Shown here in pieces: positions 2,284 through 63,991 of a DNA stretch of 64,000 bases. Position 1 is the stretch's first letter. Every line of letters starts with the position of its first letter. A program made the translations under genes and the position numbers. The notes beneath the pieces were generated by a model. It was given only the letters and a program-made list of their open reading frames with translations, made no database searches and was not told where the DNA came from. The stretch is from an uncultured delta proteobacterium (GTDB lineage Bacteria > Myxococcota_A > Polyangia > Palsa-1104): assembly GCA_963785725.1 (NCBI GenBank), contig CAWAWS010000003.1, positions 64,001 through 128,000 of the forward strand, in the 5' to 3' direction.

Positions 2284-4361
2284 ATGGCGAAGAAACAGAA
2301 CAAAGCCCACCCCAAGCCGCCGAAAGCGGCGGACGTGCCGGCCAAGCGGCCCAAGCTCCCCGAGCTCGAAGACCGGCTGCGCGAAGCGGAAGAGACGCTG
2401 GAGGCGATTCGCACCGGGCAGGTCGACGCGCTCGTCGTGCAGGGCGCGAGCGGCGACCAGGTGTTCACGCTGCGCGGCGCCGACCATCGCTATCGGCAGC
2501 TCGTCGAGACGATGAACGAAGGCGCGCTCATGCTGGCCTACGACGGCACGATCGTCTACAGCAACGCGCGCTTCGCCCGCATGGTGCAGCGGCCGCTGCG
2601 CGAGACGATCGGCGCGCCCTTTCACGGCTTCTTGCACGAGACCTGGCACGGGATCTGGGCGCGCTATTGAAGTCGGCGACGAACGGCACGGCCAAGGCCG
2701 AGGTCGAGCTGCGCGCCGGCGACGGCTCGGGCGTGCCCGTCTATCTGTCGGCGACCGCCAGCCGCGACGAGGAGGCCAACGTCTTGTGCGTCATCGCCAC
2801 CGATCTGTCGGAGCAGCGGCGCACGCAAGAGGTGATGGCGGCCGAGCGCTTCGCGGCGTCGCTGCTCGATCAGGCGGCCGACGCCATCGTCGTCTGCGAC
2901 GTCGACGGGCGCGTCATTCGCGCCAGCCAAGCGGCGCATCGGCTGACGCGCGACAATCCGCTGCTGCGGCCCTTTCGCGACGCCTTCTTGCTGACGCAGT
3001 TCGAGCCGCCGAGCAGCGATCCGCTGGCGCTGGCGCTCGGCGGCGAGCGTGTCAGCGGCGTCGAGGCGCAGCTGACGCGCAGCGACGGCACGCTCGCCGA
3101 CGTCTTGGTCTCGGCCGGCCCGGTGCTCAACGGCGACGGCGACTCGGTCGGCTGCGTGTTGTCGTTCGTCGACGTCACCGAGCGCAAGGCGGCGGCGGCC
3201 GAGCGGCTCGAGCTGCTCGAAGGCGCCGAGCAAGCGCGCGAAGCGGCCGAGAGCGCCAATCGCGCCAAAGATCAGTTCCTGGCGATGTTGGGCCACGAGC
3301 TGCGCAATCCCCTGGCGCCGATCTTGACGGCGCTGGAGCTGATGCGGCTCAAAGGCGACCACGAGCTGATTCGCGAGCGGGCGGTCATCGAGCGCCAGGT
3401 GCGCCACGTCGTGCGGCTCGTCGACGATCTGCTCGACGTGTCGCGGATTACGCAAGGCAAGGTGGAGCTGGCGCGGCGGCCGATCGAGCTGGCGCAGGTG
3501 GTCATCAAAGCGGTGGAGGCGGCGAGCCCGCTCATCGAGCAGCGCCATCATCGGCTGTCGGTCGACGTCGCGCAGAGCGGCCTCTTGGTCTACGGCGACG
3601 AGATGCGCCTGTGCCAGGTCATCTCGAACTTGCTGACGAACGCCGCCAAATACACCGACGTCAACGGGCGCATTCACGTGAGCGCCACCCGCGACGCCGA
3701 CGAGGTCGAGCTCACCGTGACCGACAACGGCGCGGGAATCCCAGCCGAAATCTTGCCGCACCTGTTCGAGAGCTTCGTGCAAGGGCAGCGCACGATCGAG
3801 CGCTCCGAAGGCGGGCTCGGGCTCGGGCTGGCCATCGTGCGCAGCTTGGTGCTCTTGCACGGCGGCACGGTCGAGGCGCGCAGCGACGGCATCGGGCGCG
3901 GCAGCGAGTTTGCCATGCGGCTGCCGGCGTTGCGCGCGGACAGCCGCGTCGCCATCGTCGAGCCCGCGGCGCTGCTGCCGGCGACGGCGACGGGCGCGCC
4001 GCGGCGCGTGCTCATCGTCGACGACAACATCGACGCGGCCGAGCTCTTGGCGGCGTCGCTGGAGGCGCTCGGCCACCTGACGCGCGTGGCCCACGACGGC
4101 CCGTCGGCGCTGCGCGCGGCCGAGGAGTTCGACCCGCAGGTGGCGCTGCTCGACATCGGGCTGCCGGTGATGGACGGCTACGAATTGGCGCGGCGCATTC
4201 GCGTCGACGGCCTGCGCTTGGTGGCGCTGACCGGCTACGGGCAGGACACCGACCGCGAGCGCTCGTCGCAGGCGGGCTTCGACGAGCACCTCGTCAAGCC
4301 GGTGGAGATCGCGCGACTGAGCGACGTCATTCGCCAACTGACGCAGCCGCAACCGCATTAG
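2284..4361 (+). CDS. PAS-domain hybrid histidine kinase/response regulator (one frameshift near 2640-2670)
   Basis: N-terminal PAS in ORF 2284..2670. In ORF 2082..4361: H-box FLAMLGHELRNPL, N-box NLLTNAAKYT, G-boxes DNGAGI and GGLGLGL, receiver VLIVDDN...LLDIGLPVMDGY...KP. Confidence 0.9.
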
Positions 4362-4564: not shown

Positions 4565-6034
4565 GTGAACCGAAGAATGCTCGGCGTCTTTGCGGTCGCG
4601 CTCTCGCTCCTGGGCTGCGCGACGCGCGCCCAGCGCGTGAGCGGCTCGGCCGTGGGCGGCTTCGACGGCGGCGCCGTCGGCGACATGAGCGCGCAGCCCG
4701 CCAACGACGGCGGCACCACCATCGCGCCCATCAATCGCGATTCGACGACCATCTACAACGTCTATCCGCAGCTCTATTCGCCATCGGGCACGTTGACGGC
4801 GGTGACGATCGATCTGGAGCGCATTCACGATCTCGGCTTCGATACGCTCTATCTATTGCCGGTGACACCGATTGGCCAGGCGACTTACAATCATCCGTCA
4901 TTCGGCAGCCCTTATTGCGTGCACGACTATTATGCCGTCAGTGAGTCATTGGGTAACGAGGCCGATCTGACGAAGCTCGTGCAAACCGCGCACAAGCTGG
5001 GCATGCACGTCATTCTCGACGAGGTCTTGAATCATACGTCGTGGGATAACGCGCTCATTACGCTGCATCCCGAATACTACTTACATAGCGACGGGAATCC
5101 TTTGAACCTGGACTCGATCGAGCAGGCGTTCGACTTTGCCGACGTCGCGCAGCTCGATTACAAGACGCCGAGCAATGGCGTCGCCGAATACATGACCGAT
5201 ATGCTCGTCTATTGGATCGCGACCTTCGATATCGACGGGTTTCGCTTCGATACCGCCGACGATCCAATGGGCGACGCGCGCATGATTCCGGCCAGCTTCT
5301 GGCAAGACTTGCGGGCGCAATTGGAGGCGACGAAACCGGGAATCTTCCTGCTCGGCGAGGCAGAAGATCCGGCGCTCTCCGATGTGGCGTTCGATCTCGA
5401 TTACGGCTGGCAACTGCAAGGCGTCTACGGCGCCGGCGGCCTGGCGCAAGTGGCGACCGGCGGCGACGCGACGCTGCTCGAGCAGGCGTGGATGGCGCAA
5501 AAGAGCGGCTATCCGAGCGACGTGCGCCATATGACGCTCTTGCAAGACTGGGATCTCGACGAGGATTTGACGCTGTATGGCGGCGCGCCCAACACGATGG
5601 CGGCGGCGACCTTCAACTTCACGATCGACGGCATTCCCATGCTCTTCAATGGCGAAGAGGTGGGGAATGACAATAGCGCCGTCAATACGCATATGCCGAT
5701 CGATTGGAGCGGTCCCAACGCGGCGACGTTTACGCCGTTCTATCGCTCACTGTTGGCGTTGCGGAATGGCAACGCGGCGCTGCAACAGGGCGCCGTCAAT
5801 TGGATTGCCAATAGCGCGCCCAGCTCGGTCGTCAGCTATACGCGTACGAATACGGACGCGACCTTCCTCGTCGTCATCAACTTCGGCGGCAGCGCGGTCA
5901 GCGGCACGTTGTCGGGGATCGGCGCCGGCCCGTGGACCGACGTGTCGCCGGTCGGCTCGCCCGGCGGCACGTCGCACGCACAGCCGCCCAGCTTCACCCT
6001 CGCCGCTTACGACTTCGCCGTATTCCATCAGTAA
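4565..6034 (+). CDS. Secreted/lipoprotein alpha-amylase family (GH13) glycoside hydrolase
   Basis: Lipobox-like LLGC; GH13 regions DEVLNHT, GFRFDTA, LLGEA; region IV reads LQDWD; GIPMLFNGEEVG. Confidence 0.88.
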   Translation: MNRRMLGVFAVALSLLGCATRAQRVSGSAVGGFDGGAVGDMSAQPANDGGTTIAPINRDSTTIYNVYPQLYSPSGTLTAVTIDLERIHDLGFDTLYLLPVTPIGQATYNHPSFGSPYCVHDYYAVSESLGNEADLTKLVQTAHKLGMHVILDEVLNHTSWDNALITLHPEYYLHSDGNPLNLDSIEQAFDFADVAQLDYKTPSNGVAEYMTDMLVYWIATFDIDGFRFDTADDPMGDARMIPASFWQDLRAQLEATKPGIFLLGEAEDPALSDVAFDLDYGWQLQGVYGAGGLAQVATGGDATLLEQAWMAQKSGYPSDVRHMTLLQDWDLDEDLTLYGGAPNTMAAATFNFTIDGIPMLFNGEEVGNDNSAVNTHMPIDWSGPNAATFTPFYRSLLALRNGNAALQQGAVNWIANSAPSSVVSYTRTNTDATFLVVINFGGSAVSGTLSGIGAGPWTDVSPVGSPGGTSHAQPPSFTLAAYDFAVFHQ

Positions 6035-8494: not shown

Positions 8495-8672
8495 CGCGCT
8501 CAGACAGTGCTCGCCCTACGGGCTGCGCAAGACAACTCGCGCGCGCCCGTTATTTCTCCGCTTTGGCCTTCCGAGAAGGATCACGCGGGCGCGCGCGCTC
8601 GGAAATGGCGGGCGCGCGCTCAGACTGCGGGCTGCGCAAGACAACGCGCGCGCGCCCGCTATTTCGGAGCGC
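8474..8672. repeat. Palindromic repeat copy 2 (8474-8567) plus a degenerate third copy (about 8600-8672)
   Basis: Shared core GGGCGCGCGCTCAGAC...CGGGCTGCGCAAGACAAC..GCGCGCGCCCG.TATTTC in both copies. Confidence 0.8.
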
Positions 8673-8783
8673 TGGTAGGGTGGGTTCAGGGCGCGCATTT
8701 TTCGCGCAATGGGCGCGGGGCCTCGTCACGATCGTTGCACGGACGATTGAAGCTCGGCGTGCGAGGCGTAATTCCTCCTCGGC

Positions 8784-11700
8784 ATGTGGATCGTCCGACT
8801 CGCGCTGCGTCGTCCTTACACAGTGCTCATGAGCGTGCTCGTCATCGCGCTCTTCGGCGCCTTGGCGCTGCAGCGGCTCAAGCGCGACATCCTGCCCAAC
8901 ATCGACATCCCCGTCGTCATCGTCATCTGGAACTACCCGGGCTGTCGGCCGACGACATGGAGCAGCGCGTCGTCTTCATCACCGAGCGCGCGCTGTCGAC
9001 GACGGTCGACGGCATCGAGCGCATCGAGTCGCAGTCGCTGTCGGGCATCGGCGTCGTCCGCGTCTACTTCGAGCAAGGGCACCGACATCGGCAGCGCCAT
9101 CGCGCAGATCACCGCCGTGTGCGGCACCATCTTGCGCATTTTGCCGCCGGGGATCACGCCGCCCAACATCCTGCAGTTCAACGCCTCCAACGTCCAGGTC
9201 GCGCAGCTGACGCTCAAGAGCGACAGCCTGACCGAGCAGGACTTGTACGACTACGGCCTCAACTTCCTGCGCCTCAAGCTGTTCACCATCCCCGGCTTGG
9301 CGACGCCGGCGCCCTTCGGCGGCCGCTCGCGCCAGATCATGGTCGACCTCGATCCGCAGAAGATGCAGGCGCAAGCGGCGTCTCGGCCACCGACGTCGTC
9401 AACGCGCTCGGCAACAACAACGTCATCTTGCCGGCCGGCGACGCGCGCATCGGCAACATCGACTACGACGTGCTCATGAACTCGTCGCCCGACACCGTCA
9501 AAGAGTTCAACCAAATGCCGCTCAAGGTCGTCAACGGCATGACCGTGCTGCTCGGCGACGTCGCCTTCGTCCACGACGGCTACGCCGTGCAGACCAACAT
9601 CGTGCGCGTCAACGGGCGGCGCGCGACCTATCTGTCCATCCTGCGCAAAGCCGGCGCGTCGACGCTCGCCGTCGTCGACGCCGTGCGCGATCTCGTTGCC
9701 CGCCATCAGAGCGTCGGCGCCGCCGGGGATGGACGTCAGCATCGACTTCGACCAGTCGATCTTCGTGCGCGCCGCCATCAAGGGCGTCTTGCGCGAAGCC
9801 GGCATCGCCGCCGGCGCTCGTCTCGCTCATGATCCTCTTCTTCCTCGGCAGCTGGCGCTCGGTGGTCATCGTCTGCACGTCGATCCCGATCGCGCTCGTC
9901 TTCGGCATCTGCGCGCTGTTCCTGACCGGACCAGACGCTGAACCTCATGACGCTCGGCGGCCTCTCGCTCGCCGTCGGCATGCTCGTCGACGACGCCACC
10001 GTCGAGGTCGAGAACATCCACCGCAACCGCGGCGAAGGCAAGCCGCTCACGGTCGCCATCCTCGACGGCGCGCACCAGGTCGCCGTGCCCGCGCTGGCGG
10101 CGACGCTGACCATCTGCATCGTCTTCTTCCCGGTCGTGATGCTGCAGGGCCCGTCGCGCTTCCTGTTCATGCCGCTGGCGCTCGCCGTCGTGTTCTCGAT
10201 GATCGCGTCCTATCTGCTCTCGCGCACGCTGGTGCCGTCGCTGGCGCACAAGCTGCTGCCCGAGAACGAAGCCGACGAGCATAAAGAAGGCTGGGTCACT
10301 CGCTTCAATGACTGGCGCGATCGCGGCTTCGATCGGCTACGCGGAGCGTATGGCGGCGTCTCTGGCGACGTGCATCGAGCATCGCGGCAAGTTCCTGCTC
10401 GGCGCGCGGCTCTTCGCGCTGATCGGCCTCAGCCTCGTCGTCGTCGTCGGCTTCGACTTCTTTCCCGCAGTCGACACCGGGCAGATGCGACTGCACGTGC
10501 GCGCCCCGATCGGCATGCGCATCGAGGACACCGAGGTCTTGCGTGGGTCGACATCGAGCGCGAGATCGCGCGCATCATCCCGCGCGACGAGCTCGACACC
10601 ATCAACGACAAGATCGGCATTCCCACCTATTACAACCTGGCCTTCGTCTCGACCGACAACGTCGGCGGGCAGGACGCCGAGATGCTCATCCAGCTCAAGG
10701 CCGGCCACCACCCGTCGCAAGACTACATGACGCGCATTCGTAAGGAGCTGCCGGCGAAGTTCCCCGGCGTGCAGCTCTATTTCATGCCCGCCGACGTCGT
10801 GACGCAGGTGCTCAACTTCGGCGTGTCTTCGATGATCGACGTGCAGATCGAGGGCCAGCGACGCCAATGCCTCTTTCGGGGTCGCGCGCCAGCTGTTCGA
10901 CAAAATGCGCGCAATCCCCGGCACCGAAGACGTGCGCATCGCGCAAGTGTTCAATCACCCGGCGCTCACGCTCGACGTCGATCGGCAGCAGGCGCTGCAG
11001 CTCAATGTCGGCTTTCGCGACGTCGCGCAACAGCGTGTTGACGTCGCTTGAGCTCGTCGTCGCTGACCGATCCCAACTTCTGGGTCAACCCGAAGACGGG
11101 CGTCAACTATAACGTCGCCGTGCAGACGCCGATTCTGAAGATGGCGAGCGTCGACGATCTGCTGGGCACGTCGGTGACGCCGGCGAACGGCATCAACAGC
11201 GAGAATACGACGGCCAACTCGCCGACGACGACGCCGGGACCGTTGACGCTGGCGCAGAGCGCGCTGCCGCTCGACTCGCACGAACGCGCCTTATCTCGGC
11301 GGCGTCGCGCGGCTGACGCAGACGCAAGATCGCGCGTCGATCAACCACTACACGGTGCAGCCGATCGTCGACGTGCAGGCGTCGGTGCACGGGCGCGACC
11401 TCGGCGGCGTCACCAGCGACATCGACGCCGCGATCAAGCAGCTCAAAGTGCCGAAGACGTCGCGGATTCGCGTGCGCGGCCAGTCGGAGAGCATGCGCAC
11501 GTCGTTCATCAGCTTCGGGCTCGGCCTCATCGTCGCCATCGTGCTCGTCTATTTGCTGCTGATGGTGCTGTTTCAGTCGGCGCTCGATCCGCTCATCATC
11601 ATGGTGGCGGTTCCGGGCGCCTTCGTCGGCATCGCGTGGATGCTGGCGCTGACGGGCACGACACTGAACGTCGAGTCGTTCATGGGCGCGATCATGGCCA

Positions 11701-59654: not shown

Positions 59655-60821
59655 TCAGCCCTTTACGCACAAGAGCTGCTTGAGCTCGGCCACGATCTCG
59701 ACCAGATCGCGCTGATTGGCCATGACCTGATCGATCGCCTTATAGGCGCCGGGGATCTCGTCGATGACGCCGTGATCCTTGCGGCACTCCACTCCCGCCG
59801 TCTGCGCGCGCAGATCGTCGAGCGTGAACGTTCGCTTGGCCGCCGAGCGCGACATGCGGCGGCCGGCGCCGTGCGACGCCGACTCGAAGGACTCGGCGTT
59901 GCCCAGGCCGCGTACGATGTACGAACGCGTTCCCATCGAGCCGGGGATGATGCCGAGCTCGCCGCGTCCGGCGCGGATCGCGCCCTTGCGCGTCACCAGC
60001 AGCTCGGCGCCGAAGTGCTGCTCCTCGGCGACATAGTTGTGGTGGCACGAAATGGGCGGCGCGAACGCCACGTCGGACCGAACGAAGCGCGCGAGCACGG
60101 AGCGGTAGAGCTCGAGCATCACCTGCCGATTCGCCGCCGCGTAGCGCTGCGCCCAGAACAGATCGCGACGATACGCGGCCATTTCCGCCGTGCCGGCCAA
60201 AAATACGGCCAGGTCGCGATCGGGCAGCTCACGGTTATGCGCCAGCTGCTTGGCGCGATGGATATGCAGCTCCGCCAGCTCCTTGCCGATGTTGCGCGAA
60301 CCGGAATGCAACATCAGCCAGACGCGATCTTCGGTGTCGAGACAGAGCTCGATGAAGTGGTTGCCTCCGCCCAGCGTTCCCAGCTGCTTGCGCGCCTTGC
60401 CCTCCAGCGACTGCACGCGCTCGTCGAGCGCACCGAACTCGGCGAACAGGTCGTAGTGGCGGGCCAGCTTCACGTCGTCGTGCGCGTTGAAGCCGACGGG
60501 GATCAGCGCTTCGATCGCCGCGCGCAGATCGCCGAGCTGCTCGGGCAGATCGTGCGAGGTCAAGTTGGTGCGCTGCGCGGCCATGCCGCAGCCGATATCG
60601 ACGCCGACGGCCGCGGGCGCGATCGCGTCTTTCATCGCCACGACCGAGCCGACGGTGGCGCCCTTGCCGAGGTGCACGTCGGGCATCACCGCGACGTGCG
60701 AGAAGCACCACGGCAGCGACGCGATGTTCTTGAGCTGCGTCAACGCCGCCGACTCGACCTCTTCGAGCGGCGCCCACATCTTGATGGGTACGTTCTTTCC
60801 TTTGAGCTCCGAGATGGACAT
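59655..60821 (-). CDS. rtcB: RtcB RNA 2',3'-cyclic phosphate/5'-OH ligase
   Basis: MPDVHLGKG; VGVDIGCG; GTLGGGNHFIE; LHSGSR; CHHNY; RKGA; IPGSMG; SHGAGR; DEIPGAYK. Confidence 0.97.
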   Translation of the reverse strand: MSISELKGKNVPIKMWAPLEEVESAALTQLKNIASLPWCFSHVAVMPDVHLGKGATVGSVVAMKDAIAPAAVGVDIGCGMAAQRTNLTSHDLPEQLGDLRAAIEALIPVGFNAHDDVKLARHYDLFAEFGALDERVQSLEGKARKQLGTLGGGNHFIELCLDTEDRVWLMLHSGSRNIGKELAELHIHRAKQLAHNRELPDRDLAVFLAGTAEMAAYRRDLFWAQRYAAANRQVMLELYRSVLARFVRSDVAFAPPISCHHNYVAEEQHFGAELLVTRKGAIRAGRGELGIIPGSMGTRSYIVRGLGNAESFESASHGAGRRMSRSAAKRTFTLDDLRAQTAGVECRKDHGVIDEIPGAYKAIDQVMANQRDLVEIVAELKQLLCVKG

Positions 60822-60966
60822 GGGTTGTCTCCATTGTCTGGGTGAAAGATAAAGCGATCAATCGCCGCCGTCGTGCTCGAGCTCGCCGTCTCAATGGACG
60901 GCGTTGCGCAGCCAGGCGCGCCTGCCGCGGCAGAGCGTCTGTGCGCGCGACGGGCCGATGCTTTCG

Positions 60967-61040
60967 TGCTCCGAGCGCGATTCGAACGCGCACTGGACGA
61001 CTTCTGAGACCGTCGCCTCTACCGATTGGGCTATCGGAGC
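60967..61040 (-). tRNA. tRNA-Leu(CAG), atypical short variable loop
   Basis: GCTCCGA TA GCC CAATCGGTAGA GGC G ACGGT CT-CAG-AA GTCGT CCAGT GCGCG TTCGAAT CGCGC TCGGAGC A. Confidence 0.85.
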
Positions 61041-61069: not shown

Positions 61070-61136
61070 CAGGTCGCCGAGGAGTCGAACCTCGCTGCCC
61101 GGTTTTGGAAACCAGGCCGATCCCAGATCGCGACCC
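61070..61136 (-). tRNA. tRNA-Trp(CCA) with truncated D-arm
   Basis: GGGTCGC GATC-TGG-GATC GGC CTGGT TT-CCA-AA ACCGG GCAG CGAGG TTCGACT CCTCG GCGACCT G (67 nt, G73). Confidence 0.75.
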
Positions 61137-61152
61137 AAGGGCGAACAAAATT

Positions 61153-61229
61153 GCAGCTGGTGGAAACGGAGGGTTACTCCGCGTCGGACACCCGTGTCCG
61201 ACATTCCGGGTGGGGGATAACCCAGCTGC
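61153..61229 (-). ncRNA. Candidate Ro60-associated (Y-like) RNA, copy B
   Basis: Terminal stem GCAGCTGG/CCAGCTGC; unpaired GTTATCCCCCACCC; GGAA/TTCC; hairpins GTCGGACA/TGTCCGAC and GCGGAG/CTCCGT. Confidence 0.55.
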
Positions 61230-61270
61230 TCCGGCTCGCCGACAGCGAAACAAAACGCGGACGAGGAATC

Positions 61271-61337
61271 GGGCTGGGGTTGCGGGCTTCGAACCCGCGC
61301 CGGCGTTGGCCGGCTTCAACCGATGATAACCCAGCCC
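61271..61337 (-). ncRNA. Candidate Ro60-associated (Y-like) RNA, copy A, with T-arm
   Basis: Terminal stem GGGCTGG/CCAGCCC; unpaired GTTATCATC; GGTT/AACC; hairpin GCCGGC-CAAC-GCCGGC; T-arm GCGGG-TTCGAAG-CCCGC. Confidence 0.6.
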
Positions 61338-61349
61338 ATTCGGCCCGCG

Positions 61350-61423
61350 TGGAGCCACTCGTCGGAGTCGAACCGCCTTGCCCGTATACGAGACGGGTGC
61401 CTTCCCGGAAGGCAACGAGGGGC
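61350..61423 (-). tRNA. tRNA-Thr(CGT), atypical, CCA encoded
   Basis: GCCCCTC GTT GCCTT CCGGG AAGGC A CCCGT CT-CGT-AT ACGGG CAA GGCGG TTCGACT CCGAC GAGTGGC T CCA; one mismatch each in the acceptor and T stems. Confidence 0.78.
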
Positions 61424-61495: not shown

Positions 61496-63145
61496 TTACG
61501 GACGTGGCCGCGTGCGCGCGAAGTCGGCCAAGATCGTCGGCGTGGCCGTATCGAAGCCGACCACGTCGAGCATCCCGGCATCCGTCGGATCGGCGATCGA
61601 GAAGCCGTTCGACACCATGCCCACGACCACCAGCTTGGCCGCGATTCCCAGGCGCTGCCGATACTGTCGCAGCGCCTGCGCCGGATGGATGCCGCCGGCC
61701 CACGTCTCCGAGTCGGTGTAGATGACGAACGTATCCACCTCGACGCGGCGCTCGATCGCCCACAACATCGGCTGCGCGCAGTCGGTGCCGCCGAAGGGCA
61801 GCCCGCTGACCCGCTCGACGGCGCGGTCGAGCCGCCAGTGCGGCGAGATGTCGAGCTCCGTCAGCGACGGTGCACCGCCACCATATTGCCCGCCGTACTG
61901 GCCGTTGCCGGCGCTCGTGAAGGCGACGAAGGCGTGCTGCTTCTCCGTCGCCGCCGTCACCAGCGCCATCGCCGCGCTCGCCACGCGCGGCGTCAGCCCG
62001 GGCACGCCCGCCACCGCGCCGCCGTCCATCGAGCCCGAGACGTCGAGCGCCAGCAGCGTCCGCATGCCCGATGGCTCGACATGCTTGAACGACGCATGGA
62101 ACGCGTCGCTCAGCGCGTCGACGATCGCGGCCCGCGGCGTCCACGTGTGCTGGCCGCGGACGCCGCGACCGGCGGCGTACGTCTTGAGCGCCGCCAGGAT
62201 CGCGATCGGATGGATGCGCGCCGCCGCCAGCCGCGCGCCGTCGCGCAGCCGGTCGGCCACGAGCCGCGTGGCGTCGCTGAGCACGCCCAGCAGCCCGACG
62301 CGGGTCATCGTCGCCAGGTTGCGGATCAGCGCCGCCAGCGGCATGTGCTCGAGCAGCGCCTCCCACACGCGCGCCTCGTCGAGCCACACCGTCGGGACGC
62401 ACTCGCGCGGCAGGTTGTGCTGCGTCACCAGCCGCACGATCTCGCGCACGTCGGTCGCGCGCTTGGCCTGCTCGAAGGCGTCGACGAGCGCCAGCGCCGG
62501 CGGCACCGGCTGCCGCAGCTCGCCGCGCACGATCCAATGATAGAGCTCGTCGTGCTCGGCCGACGGCGCCTTCGGGTGGGCGAGACGCAGCAGATCGCGC
62601 GTCGACCAGCCGTCGCGCGACTGATACTTCACCGCCTGGTACGCGACAGTACCAACGGGCTTGTCATTGAACCAGCGCTGCACCGCCGTCCGCGTAGCGC
62701 GGCCCCAACCACCGAACGCTTGTACGTATTCGGCGAAGTGCATGAGGTGCGTGCCCGTGCGGCAGACCTGGGGCAGCGCCGCCAGGGCCGCGCGGCGCGT
62801 CGCGAAGTCGCCGCGCTTGGCGGCCATCGCCAGCGCGAAGATCGCCGGATCGTTCTTGGGCGCCCGGCCGGCGTCGCTGACGGCGACGATCTGCGCGACG
62901 GTGCGCGCGCCGTCGCCGTCGATGCAGCGGGCGACCGCCTCGGCGTTCTCCCGCGTCAACGCCGGCTCCTTGGCGTAATAGCTGCCGCCCTCGGTGCCGA
63001 GAATCAGGAAGCGGTCGAGCCGCGTCCAGTCGTCGACGGCCCAGGCGAAGCCGCCGCCGGAGTTGGCGACCTGCGTCGAGCCCGGAATGGGCTGCGACTG
63101 CGGCGTCTGGTTGAGCGAGAACAGCTTTCCATAGTTGATACCCAC
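61496..63145 (-). CDS. rsr: Ro60/Rsr TROVE-domain RNA-binding protein with vWA domain
   Basis: QVANSGGGFAW..DDW.RLDRFLILGTEGGSYY; KYQSRDGWS.RDLLRLAHP; MP..ALIRNL; IHP; MIDAS DVSGSM; GGTDC; YTDSETW; DVVGFD. SD AAGGAGGTGA precedes the GTG start. Confidence 0.95.
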   Translation of the reverse strand: MGINYGKLFSLNQTPQSQPIPGSTQVANSGGGFAWAVDDWTRLDRFLILGTEGGSYYAKEPALTRENAEAVARCIDGDGARTVAQIVAVSDAGRAPKNDPAIFALAMAAKRGDFATRRAALAALPQVCRTGTHLMHFAEYVQAFGGWGRATRTAVQRWFNDKPVGTVAYQAVKYQSRDGWSTRDLLRLAHPKAPSAEHDELYHWIVRGELRQPVPPALALVDAFEQAKRATDVREIVRLVTQHNLPRECVPTVWLDEARVWEALLEHMPLAALIRNLATMTRVGLLGVLSDATRLVADRLRDGARLAAARIHPIAILAALKTYAAGRGVRGQHTWTPRAAIVDALSDAFHASFKHVEPSGMRTLLALDVSGSMDGGAVAGVPGLTPRVASAAMALVTAATEKQHAFVAFTSAGNGQYGGQYGGGAPSLTELDISPHWRLDRAVERVSGLPFGGTDCAQPMLWAIERRVEVDTFVIYTDSETWAGGIHPAQALRQYRQRLGIAAKLVVVGMVSNGFSIADPTDAGMLDVVGFDTATPTILADFARTRPRP

Positions 63146-63187: not shown

Positions 63188-63263
63188 TGGTACGGAGCCA
63201 GGGAATCGAACCCTGCGCAGCGAGTTTGTAGGACTCGTATCACCCCCAGGTGAGCTGCTCCGC
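63188..63263 (-). tRNA. tRNA-Val(TAC), atypical D-arm, CCA encoded
   Basis: GCGGAGC AGC TCACC TGGG GGTGA TA CGAGT CC-TAC-AA ACTCG CTGCG CAGGG TTCGATT CCCTG GCTCCGT A CCA. Confidence 0.8.
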
Positions 63264-63284
63264 ATGAAATGCAATGCAATGACG

Positions 63285-63357
63285 TGCTCCCGGCAGGAGT
63301 CGAACCTGCAATGTCCGGTTTAGAAGACCGGCGCCCATTCCATTGGGCTTCGAGAGC
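63285..63357 (-). tRNA. tRNA-Arg(TCT)
   Basis: GCTCTCG AA GCCC AATGGAAT GGGC G CCGGT CT-TCT-AA ACCGG ACATT GCAGG TTCGACT CCTGC CGGGAGC A. Confidence 0.9.
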
Positions 63358-63377
63358 GATTGGACGCAAACAAGCAG

Positions 63378-63450
63378 TGCTCCCGGCAGGAGTCGAACCT
63401 GCACTTCATCCTTCGCAGGGATGTGACCTATCCATTAGTGCGACGGGAGC
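63378..63450 (-). tRNA. tRNA-Arg(GCG)
   Basis: GCTCCCG TC GCACTAATGGATAGGTC A CATCC CT-GCG-AA GGATG AAGT GCAGG TTCGACT CCTGC CGGGAGC A; weak D-stem. Confidence 0.82.
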
Positions 63451-63464
63451 TTGAATACATCGAG

Positions 63465-63536
63465 TGTCCTCGCCAGGAATCGAACCTGGAATGTCGGCTT
63501 CGGAGACCGGCGTGAGATCCATTTCACTACGAGGAC
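63465..63536 (-). tRNA. tRNA-Arg(CCG)
   Basis: GTCCTCG TA GTGA AATGGATC TCAC G CCGGT CT-CCG-AA GCCGA CATT CCAGG TTCGATT CCTGG CGAGGAC A. Confidence 0.88.
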
Positions 63537-63556
63537 GACGCTGTCACTTCAGTGAG

Positions 63557-63749
63557 TAGTCGTGGCGGGATTCGAACCCGCACGGTCGAAGCAAGAGATC
63601 CTCTGAGGAAACGCGCTTCCCTGCCAAAGCGTTCCCGCCCGGGCCCGGTGCATCCGTAAACCTTGGATCTCGCCGCCGTCAGGCGTCTCCGACTGCTTTC
63701 GCTATCGGTTTCCGTTTTTCCGACGCGCTCCCTTTTGCGCTACACGACC
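63557..63749 (-). ncRNA. tRNA-shaped RNA with a 128-nt structured insert replacing the anticodon loop
   Basis: Acceptor GGTCGTG/CACGACT plus A; TA; D-arm GCGC-AAAAGGGA-GCGC; G; stem TCGGA/TTCGA enclosing 63591-63718; CCGT; T-arm GCGGG-TTCGAAT-CCCGC. Confidence 0.75.
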
Positions 63750-63760
63750 ATTCGAAACGG

Positions 63761-63833
63761 TGGAGTCGGAGGGAGTTGAACCCTCGTCTCTGCGATGCGA
63801 GCGCAGCGTGTTCCCGTTATTCACCACGACCCC
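63761..63833 (-). tRNA. tRNA-Ala(CGC)
   Basis: GGGGTCG TG GTGAATAACGGGAACAC G CTGCG CT-CGC-AT CGCAG AGAC GAGGG TTCAACT CCCTC CGACTCC A; G3:U70 and A73 present. Confidence 0.9.
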
Positions 63834-63918
63834 TTGCTACAGCGGCGAGACACGACGAGCAGTGTTGAAAGACCGAGCGCGTCCTGCATAGGTCGTCATT
63901 CGGCGTTTCATTCAGCTG

Positions 63919-63991
63919 CGCCCCAGCGAGGAGTCGAACCTCGTTCTCCGGTGCTTCAGACCAGCGCGTAGACCGCATACGCTACCGGGGC
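63919..63991 (-). tRNA. tRNA-Phe(GAA)
   Basis: GCCCCGG TA GCGT ATGCGGTCT ACGC G CTGGT CT-GAA-GC ACCGG AGAA CGAGG TTCGACT CCTCG CTGGGGC G. Confidence 0.85.

Follow-up and report, generated by a model that had tools for sequence, protein, structure and literature searches.

Predicted full-size Y RNAs with an animal-like handle in a tRNA array carrying rsr and rtcB in a Myxococcota-type bacterium

In a general Y RNA, the 5′ and 3′ ends pair in a long stem that contains a single bulged C and a bulge opposite it (accessible text of PMC4726728), and His187 of Ro60 is essential for the contact with Y RNA (accessible text of PMC4030889). The available part of PMC4450293 reports that the motif UUAUC and a central UG-CA are conserved in sbRNAs and vertebrate Y RNAs, and that full-length sbRNAs need both in a cell-free assay of the initiation of DNA replication. 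A named partner for the animal UUAUC was not found in the accessible portions of the literature on animal Y RNAs. In Deinococcus, Yrn1 and Yrn2 derive from a transcript that also contains tRNA-Asp, and it is Yrn1 that links Rsr to PNPase as a tether. According to the same source, of which part was available (PMC4201824), the Deinococcus RNAs keep both strands of the helix, as animals do, short hairpin Y RNAs (Yrn2 and YrlB) exist, BLAST found no orthologue of Yrn1, and the sequence GGUUAY, there called YUAY, was already visible in the 2014 seed alignment of YrlA. Arrays of L-type tRNA genes are co-induced with rtcB under translation stress (PMC8421152, available text); the words TROVE and Y RNA are absent from that text.

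In the window, by which we mean the whole stretch of 64,000 nucleotides that was analysed, the rsr gene (61496..63145, minus strand) encodes an Ro60 orthologue of 549 aa with the Pfam domains PF05731 (TROVE) and PF25045 (vWA_Ro60). His190 of this protein was aligned with His187 of vertebrate Ro60; thus, the key histidine is kept. A MIDAS motif (DVSGS) is located at position 368, and the score with the NCBIfam Rsr model (580) is under the cut-off of 900. The PDB matches scored 425, 410 and 407 bits; judging from the entry codes, we take them to be D. radiodurans Rsr, frog Ro60 and human Ro60, respectively. The gene is embedded in an array of 20 co-oriented tRNA genes in all, which extends past the window (G000:C3:124966-129345), and 17 of these genes precede rsr, six of them placed by ARAGORN at 63188..63991 (minus strand). 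On the downstream side, all on the minus strand, rsr is followed by a tRNA-Thr(CGT)-like gene (61350..61423, ARAGORN), two RNA copies designated A (61255..61350) and B (61139..61241), a tRNA-Trp(CCA)-like gene with a shrunken D-arm (61070..61137 by Rfam alignment, 61071-61146 by ARAGORN), tRNA-Leu(CAG) (60966..61040, ARAGORN) as the last tRNA, and the rtcB RNA ligase gene (59655..60821, PF01139, 425 bits), which closes the array. Both copies lie within about 4 kb of the Ro60 gene. A scan of the array found no consensus sigma-70 promoter and no minus-strand terminator near either copy. The source genome has a PNPase gene and a second rsr on contig C39.

The array resembles the L-arrays and the Anabaena trn operon in having about 20 tRNA genes and rtcB in a single orientation, but differs from them in that rsr and Y RNAs are embedded in it. 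A short tRNA-Trp like that of the window was also found in another fetched locus (L007:7807-7875). A frame of about 50 codons that ends in Gly-Pro-stop or Asp-Pro-stop, followed by a terminator-like hairpin, precedes each of four tRNA-rsr arrays (L001 ~8670-8825, minus strand; L002 ~8610-8760, minus; L003 ~3007-3160, plus; L007 ~1469-1610, plus), and this element is a candidate translation-sensing attenuator.

The original prediction described two stretches of 67 and 77 nt with the same fold, with no strand given, and this description held on the minus strand: each has a GCUGG/CCAGC stem, GUUAUC, a small hairpin and two adjacent hairpins, and the two folds (z −4.5 and −3.8) were matched in stability by none of 200 shuffles. 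Both copies also contain the shared sequence GCTGGGTTATC, which has exactly two matches in the window (61325-61335 and 61216-61226) and two in the 8.9-Mb genome. On its own, the 11-mer exceeds chance only slightly (two or more matches at one mismatch in 5 of 100 shuffles); the case is carried by the structure. The boundaries had to be redrawn. The GCUGG/CCAGC stem had been regarded as terminal and as the part through which the RNAs are bound, but it is the upper stem, and the predicted Ro60-binding helix with its bulged C lies outside it and had been cut off. Consequently, the RNAs are not minimal, as had been proposed, but of ordinary Y RNA size, about 96 nt (A) and 103 nt (B) with predicted ends. 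These boundaries were set with a pairing map and with the covariance model R1 described below, in whose training set neither copy was included (48.2 bits for A and 36.3 bits for B). The full-length folds have z values of −5.9 and −4.3, which exceed those of the shorter stretches.

The lower Ro60 helix of copy A has 8 of 8 plus 2 pairs around a single bulged C (61342), with a multi-base bulge on the opposite strand, and all 8 pairs of its upper stem are formed. The UUAUC loop motif (61325..61329) follows the upper stem directly, in the register of the Rfam Y_RNA and ceN72 consensus. A mini-hairpin (61316..61326) with GG in its D-loop-like loop folds with 3 bp rather than the 4 bp first described, and its GG is predicted to be the elbow partner of the T-loop. 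It is followed by a middle hairpin (61299-61314) and a T-arm (61282-61298), whose loop, UUCGAAG (61287-61293), had been recognized correctly. Copy A abuts the CCA end of tRNA-Thr, and a U-rich tract comes after it. In copy B, the lower helix has 7 of 8 plus 2 pairs around the bulged C (61233), again with a multi-base bulge opposite, and the upper stem has 7 of 8 pairs with one mismatch at the top. Its UUAUC (61216-61220) is followed by a small hairpin, an 8-bp hairpin and a degenerate T-arm (61166-61182), recognized by the alignment of this final hairpin to the T-arm found in members of the A type; the degenerate loop occupies the place that had been assigned to it. The handles of the two copies differ by changes on both strands, with A-U for G-C in the lower stem, and the upper stem of copy B holds 7 Watson-Crick pairs that differ in sequence from those of copy A. 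The 5′ motif of copy A reads GCCGAAUG and fits the YrlA motif GNCGAAN(0-1)G, and that of copy B, GCCGGAG, has one change from it and is the commonest form in our alignment A2.

A plus-strand reading was rejected: the motif, the T-loop and the model matches are all on the minus strand, co-oriented with rsr. A coding explanation was likewise set aside, as the frames that span this region are long, GC-rich, overlapping and unsupported. Searches with blastn found no homologue of the copy B payload and only short weak matches to that of copy A. Because the payload sequences are not conserved, copy B may be decaying.

To collect relatives of the two copies, loci were gathered in two independent ways, by the Ro60 protein (10 from the source genome and its relatives, 44 from genome contigs) and by the 5′ DNA motif (at least 121 metagenome and 101 viral loci). 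A script selected 148 non-redundant candidates beside rsr among the matches listed. A home-made pairing score did not separate real matches from chance, and a covariance model was used instead. For this purpose, 60 short candidates were picked by hand and aligned, copies A and B being left out, and the alignment was the basis of model R1. In it, 87.5% of the cells were paired, against 72.1% in shuffles, and 198 cells showed two-sided changes, against 75; these figures ignore kinship between the sequences and are not probabilities. None of 500 shuffles was as high as the real alignment in pairing or in two-sided changes, and slid controls fell to 37-52%. Four upper-stem positions that had not been used in the selection were also tested because the ends had been picked by duplex energy. 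Among the 132 of the 148 candidates that parsed, these positions were paired in 74% of cases, compared with 41% (maximum 48%) in shuffled sequences. A motif-blind structure scan of 63 protein-found loci gave 85 matches, 60 of them with UUAYC at the start of the loop, and the same scan of shuffled DNA gave 15.5 matches per pass, none with UUAYC. Since the scan recovers UUAYC without having been given it, the motif is not an artefact of the search.

R1 matches place the handle in at least 322 distinct bacterial and phage sequences. Among the 322 listed, 170 are at most 76 nt long and 63 are longer, all without a T-arm, 58 have a T-arm without a D-stem (a pattern-based class), and 31 are YrlA-type with a T-then-D payload. 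Truly minimal members of 60-76 nt exist elsewhere in the family and none at this locus. An anticodon-like 7-nt loop directly follows UUAYC in 41 of the 132 parsed candidates, against 4.5 in shuffles; it is absent from copies A and B. Such loops were also seen in some YrlA-type members, which suggests that the YrlA 'V' hairpin is a remnant or mimic of the anticodon arm. A GG after the motif occurs in 22 of the 24 members with a spacer of 19-34 nt before the T-arm (copy A and several close kin included), but in only 35 of the 225 members without a T-arm. Copy A belongs to this subclass, in which GG just after the motif is followed by a hairpin and then the T-arm, and copy B can be aligned to this arrangement too, except that its T-loop has decayed. 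One RNA in another locus (L007:7468-7590, plus strand) combines the handle with a D-anticodon-T tRNA body and no acceptor stem; by eye, this body presumably resembles initiator tRNA.

The family is closely linked to rsr. Copies A and B are the only R1 matches in the window at E below 0.3, and the source genome holds four significant matches, all flanking the two rsr genes. Among 61 related genomes, for each of which 84 candidates were scored, the six with R1 matches are the six with a canonical rsr (at least 49% identity), three of the matches having been in training. R1 found no match in the two genomes that have a divergent Ro-like protein alone, nor in the 53 without rsr. Among the matches listed, rsr lies within 3 kb in 43 of 55 metagenome loci and 44 of 70 viral loci that are model-positive, compared with 0 of 25 listed metagenome and 0 of 26 viral motif loci that are model-negative; these counts exclude 41 metagenome loci without flanks and 5 viral loci that overlap. 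Outside training, in loci of at least 4 kb, rsr was nearby in 15 of 17 listed metagenome and 21 of 46 viral loci. All 201 R1 matches in rsr loci, among the matches listed, share the strand of rsr. In cultured actinobacteriophages, an R1 match was present just upstream of the Ro gene in 4 of 4 checked. The prediction that the two copies are Y RNA-type Ro60 ligands tied to rsr is therefore supported by the Ro helix, the covariation and the strict co-occurrence with rsr.

The handle is not universal. At E≤0.01, it was matched in 29 of 53 rsr-type loci, and in 17 of 41 when the training loci are set aside. A sample of 141 genomes from the phylum added six with a canonical rsr, all of them negative for R1; two of these six rsr loci contain weak handles of 18-19 bits, and four contain long tRNA-like matches. 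Conversely, 26 of the 70 model-positive viral loci have no rsr within 3 kb. Fifteen such viral records were searched in full; TROVE was located elsewhere in four and not found in 11, most of which are incomplete and two of which are estimated to be at least 90% complete. These two records (L192 and L220, from G066 and G069; 99% and 91% complete) carry a strong handle and no TROVE match, and their RNAs are possible orphan Y RNAs aimed at the Ro60 of the host.

Neither RNA reaches the cut-off of any Rfam family. Yrn1 (RF01053), which keeps both strands of the Ro helix, lies near rsr and is co-transcribed with tRNA, resembles the copies in these respects and in its Rfam consensus GGUUAC after the upper stem. 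It also has a D-like element, a hairpin and a T-arm in that order, which is the order of copy A and, with a decayed T-loop, of copy B. The RF01053 model aligns to 61251-61351, where copy A obtains 40.2 bits (cut-off 80), and it gave no match to copy B; at the genome scale, a search with it returned nothing in the source genome. In contrast to Yrn1, copy A is about 30 nt shorter, a 3-bp mini-hairpin replaces the longer D-like segment, and the host, judged by the nearest Ro60 matches, is of a Myxococcota-type lineage. Two closer Yrn1 look-alikes outside Deinococcus (L120:3268-3401, minus strand, 52.5 bits with RF01053; L063:6-140, plus strand, 48.9 bits) lie within arrays of many Y RNAs. YrlA (RF02553) and YrlB of Salmonella and M. 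smegmatis share with the copies the 5′ motif GNCG(A/G)A, the YUAY/GGUUAY sequence and the vicinity of rsr and rtcB. However, copies A and B have no T-acceptor-D module and no D-arm after the T-arm. Membership in YrlA was rejected, because the sole RF02553 match (16.8 bits) is on the wrong strand; as proposed, the RNAs are not YrlA. The absence of a D-arm and the different arm order that had been claimed are correct relative to YrlA, but the order is that published for Deinococcus Yrn1.

In the RF00019 and RF01656 consensus, the bulged C occupies position 9 and UGGG positions 18-21, and UUAU(C) starts at 22; copies A and B and the consensus of model R1 share this register. As in vertebrate Y RNAs and nematode sbRNAs, the upper stem contains a central UG-CA, and a bulge lies opposite the bulged C. 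The stem definition of Y RNAs (bulged C and opposite bulge) applies to both copies, and, given the model-predicted ends, both fall within the usual size range (about 80-130 nt) and have a large loop domain. The two copies read CUG-CAG in place of GUG-CAC and thus deviate from the (A/G)UG-CA(C/U) of nematode sbRNAs and vertebrate Y RNAs; they also differ from the animal RNAs in their tRNA-like payloads and in the location of their genes in a polycistron. RF01656 (ceN72-3_ceN74-2) scores 26.7 bits for A and 14.1 bits for B, below its cut-off of 38, and its alignment to both copies starts about 15 nt outside the ends drawn earlier. No match to A or B was listed for RF00019 (cut-off 38 bits). Seven members from bacteria or phages score above the RF01656 cut-off (L007 44.9, L142 47.4, L066 45.5, L124 41.5, L016 39.6, L160 38.4 and L169 38.4 bits), and two reach 29-30 bits on RF00019, the best seen being 29.9. 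GCUGG had also been compared with the start of animal Y RNAs, but this resemblance is coincidental: in the Rfam alignments, GCUGGG aligns with GUGGG of the animal upper stem, and the sequence that truly corresponds to the animal 5′ end is located another 13 nt upstream. Overall, copies A and B are predicted to be full-size, animal-like Y RNAs, a variant related to Yrn1, and are formal members of no Rfam family.

The second rsr locus contains Y RNAs of other layouts. At L002:5043-5181 (minus strand), we found a tRNA-order Y RNA with a D-arm, a T-arm and a 7-bp acceptor stem ending in CCA, in which a capped Ro helix with UUAUC stands where the anticodon arm would be. A pattern search of the fetched loci found about 30 other tRNA-order Y RNAs with 7 of 7 acceptor pairs. 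Three more Y RNAs follow this rsr (L002:5438-5620 and 5190-5417, minus strand; 48.2 and 42.9 bits), the third being split by a 164-bp insert, and a gene after them was judged by eye to be HNH-like. The insert is a palindromic MITE-like element (L002:5229-5392) that also interrupts a tRNA-like gene at L001:7327-7490, and about a dozen near-complete copies of it are present in the source genome.

We estimate a probability of roughly 80% that copies A and B work like Y RNAs, likely cut from the transcript of the tRNA array and bound by the Rsr encoded just upstream. This reading is based on the structure, the covariation, the link to rsr and the register of the animal consensus. Since copy A starts where the CCA of tRNA-Thr stands and copy B runs up to the tRNA-Trp-like gene, both would be released by tRNA processing; by analogy with Deinococcus, trimming at the tRNA 3′ side would expose the beginning of A, and RNase P, by cutting at the following tRNA, would generate the 3′ end of B. 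Rsr may grip the bulged-C helix through the conserved His190, and the RNAs may gate Rsr and tether it to RNA-processing enzymes under translation stress. In this way, they would likely assist Ro60 in the handling of damaged RNA. Induction under such stress is suggested by similar arrays (PMC8421152, accessible text) and by the Pro-stop frame and hairpin ahead of four arrays. The loop of copy A may be a tRNA-elbow mimic, with GG set against the T-loop, that recruits an effector. The effector would most likely be PNPase, as in the RYPER particle of Deinococcus, for which we see about even odds; the co-encoded RtcB ligase is a less probable candidate, and a role of the loop as a nuclease decoy is less probable still. 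Against this, the Ro60-Yrl complex of phage phiLo dampens PNPase and does not stimulate it (available part of PMC12135203). Copy B, with its decayed T-loop, may act mainly as a gate or stabiliser, or may dock another partner. The invariant UUAYC may be a structural hinge or a second Ro60 contact, shared with animal Y RNAs. The hinge role is suggested by the conserved UA of YrlA, which kinks the stem in the crystal structure (bioRxiv 312249, available text).

The position of rtcB at the end of the array raises a different view of the locus, in which Rsr and the two RNAs serve mainly in tRNA repair, aiding the neighbouring RtcB or soaking up tRNA-cutting nucleases, with no PNPase particle. The co-induction of L-type arrays with rtcB and the excess of anticodon-like loops over shuffles are consistent with this view, and an RtcB cofactor role has been proposed (accessible part of bioRxiv 312249). 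We nevertheless consider it unlikely, as copies A and B themselves have no anticodon-like loops and rtcB is present in only 16 of 53 rsr loci.

Copy A alone could be the functional Y RNA, with copy B as a decaying duplicate; the lower R1 score of copy B, its decayed T-loop, the mismatch atop its upper stem and the lack of a payload homologue point in this direction. However, the handle of copy B is kept in full and shows changes on both of its strands, and a T-arm is absent altogether from 233 of the 322 listed family members, so that we regard such decay as improbable. Finally, the location of both copies between tRNA genes and the T-arm within copy A might indicate processing signals, spacer hairpins of a tRNA operon or tRNA debris that Rsr does not bind. 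Neither the bulged-C helix nor UUAYC is a feature of tRNA, R1 matches occur beside rsr with no tRNA array (for instance in the phage loci L277, L278 and L280), and an array of 13 tRNA genes beside a divergent Ro-like gene (L010) has no match. An origin of this kind is very improbable, and we retain the reading of both copies as Rsr-bound Y RNAs.

The common register raises the question of descent. Tentatively, and at somewhat below even odds, we propose that the Y RNAs of bacteria, phages and animals have a single homologous handle in common, and that the animal forms descend from a payload-poor member. The shared handle would combine, at fixed positions relative to each other, the Ro60 helix, an upper stem of 8 bp and UUAYC, and on the same joint reading the payloads would be interchangeable in bacteria and phages, as a bare or anticodon-like loop, an elbow mimic, a YrlA module or a whole tRNA body. 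In the text available to us, no paper connects GGUUAY of bacteria with UUAUC of animals, and none reports a handle common to both, a point that reviews may cover. If the proposal is true, the UUAUC of the sbRNA replication assay is an element of a pre-animal Ro60 RNP, and it could be studied in bacterial RNAs of 65 nt.

The surprise is moderate, since Y RNAs are expected beside rsr and GGUUAY could already be seen in YrlA. Nevertheless, bacteria and phages commonly carry the full animal-type handle, including UUAUC, although the current Rfam cut-offs miss it, and a model of 67 positions recovers many unannotated Y RNAs, including those of cultured actinobacteriophages. Small bacterial RNPs thereby offer a way to test where animal Y RNAs came from and what UUAUC does.
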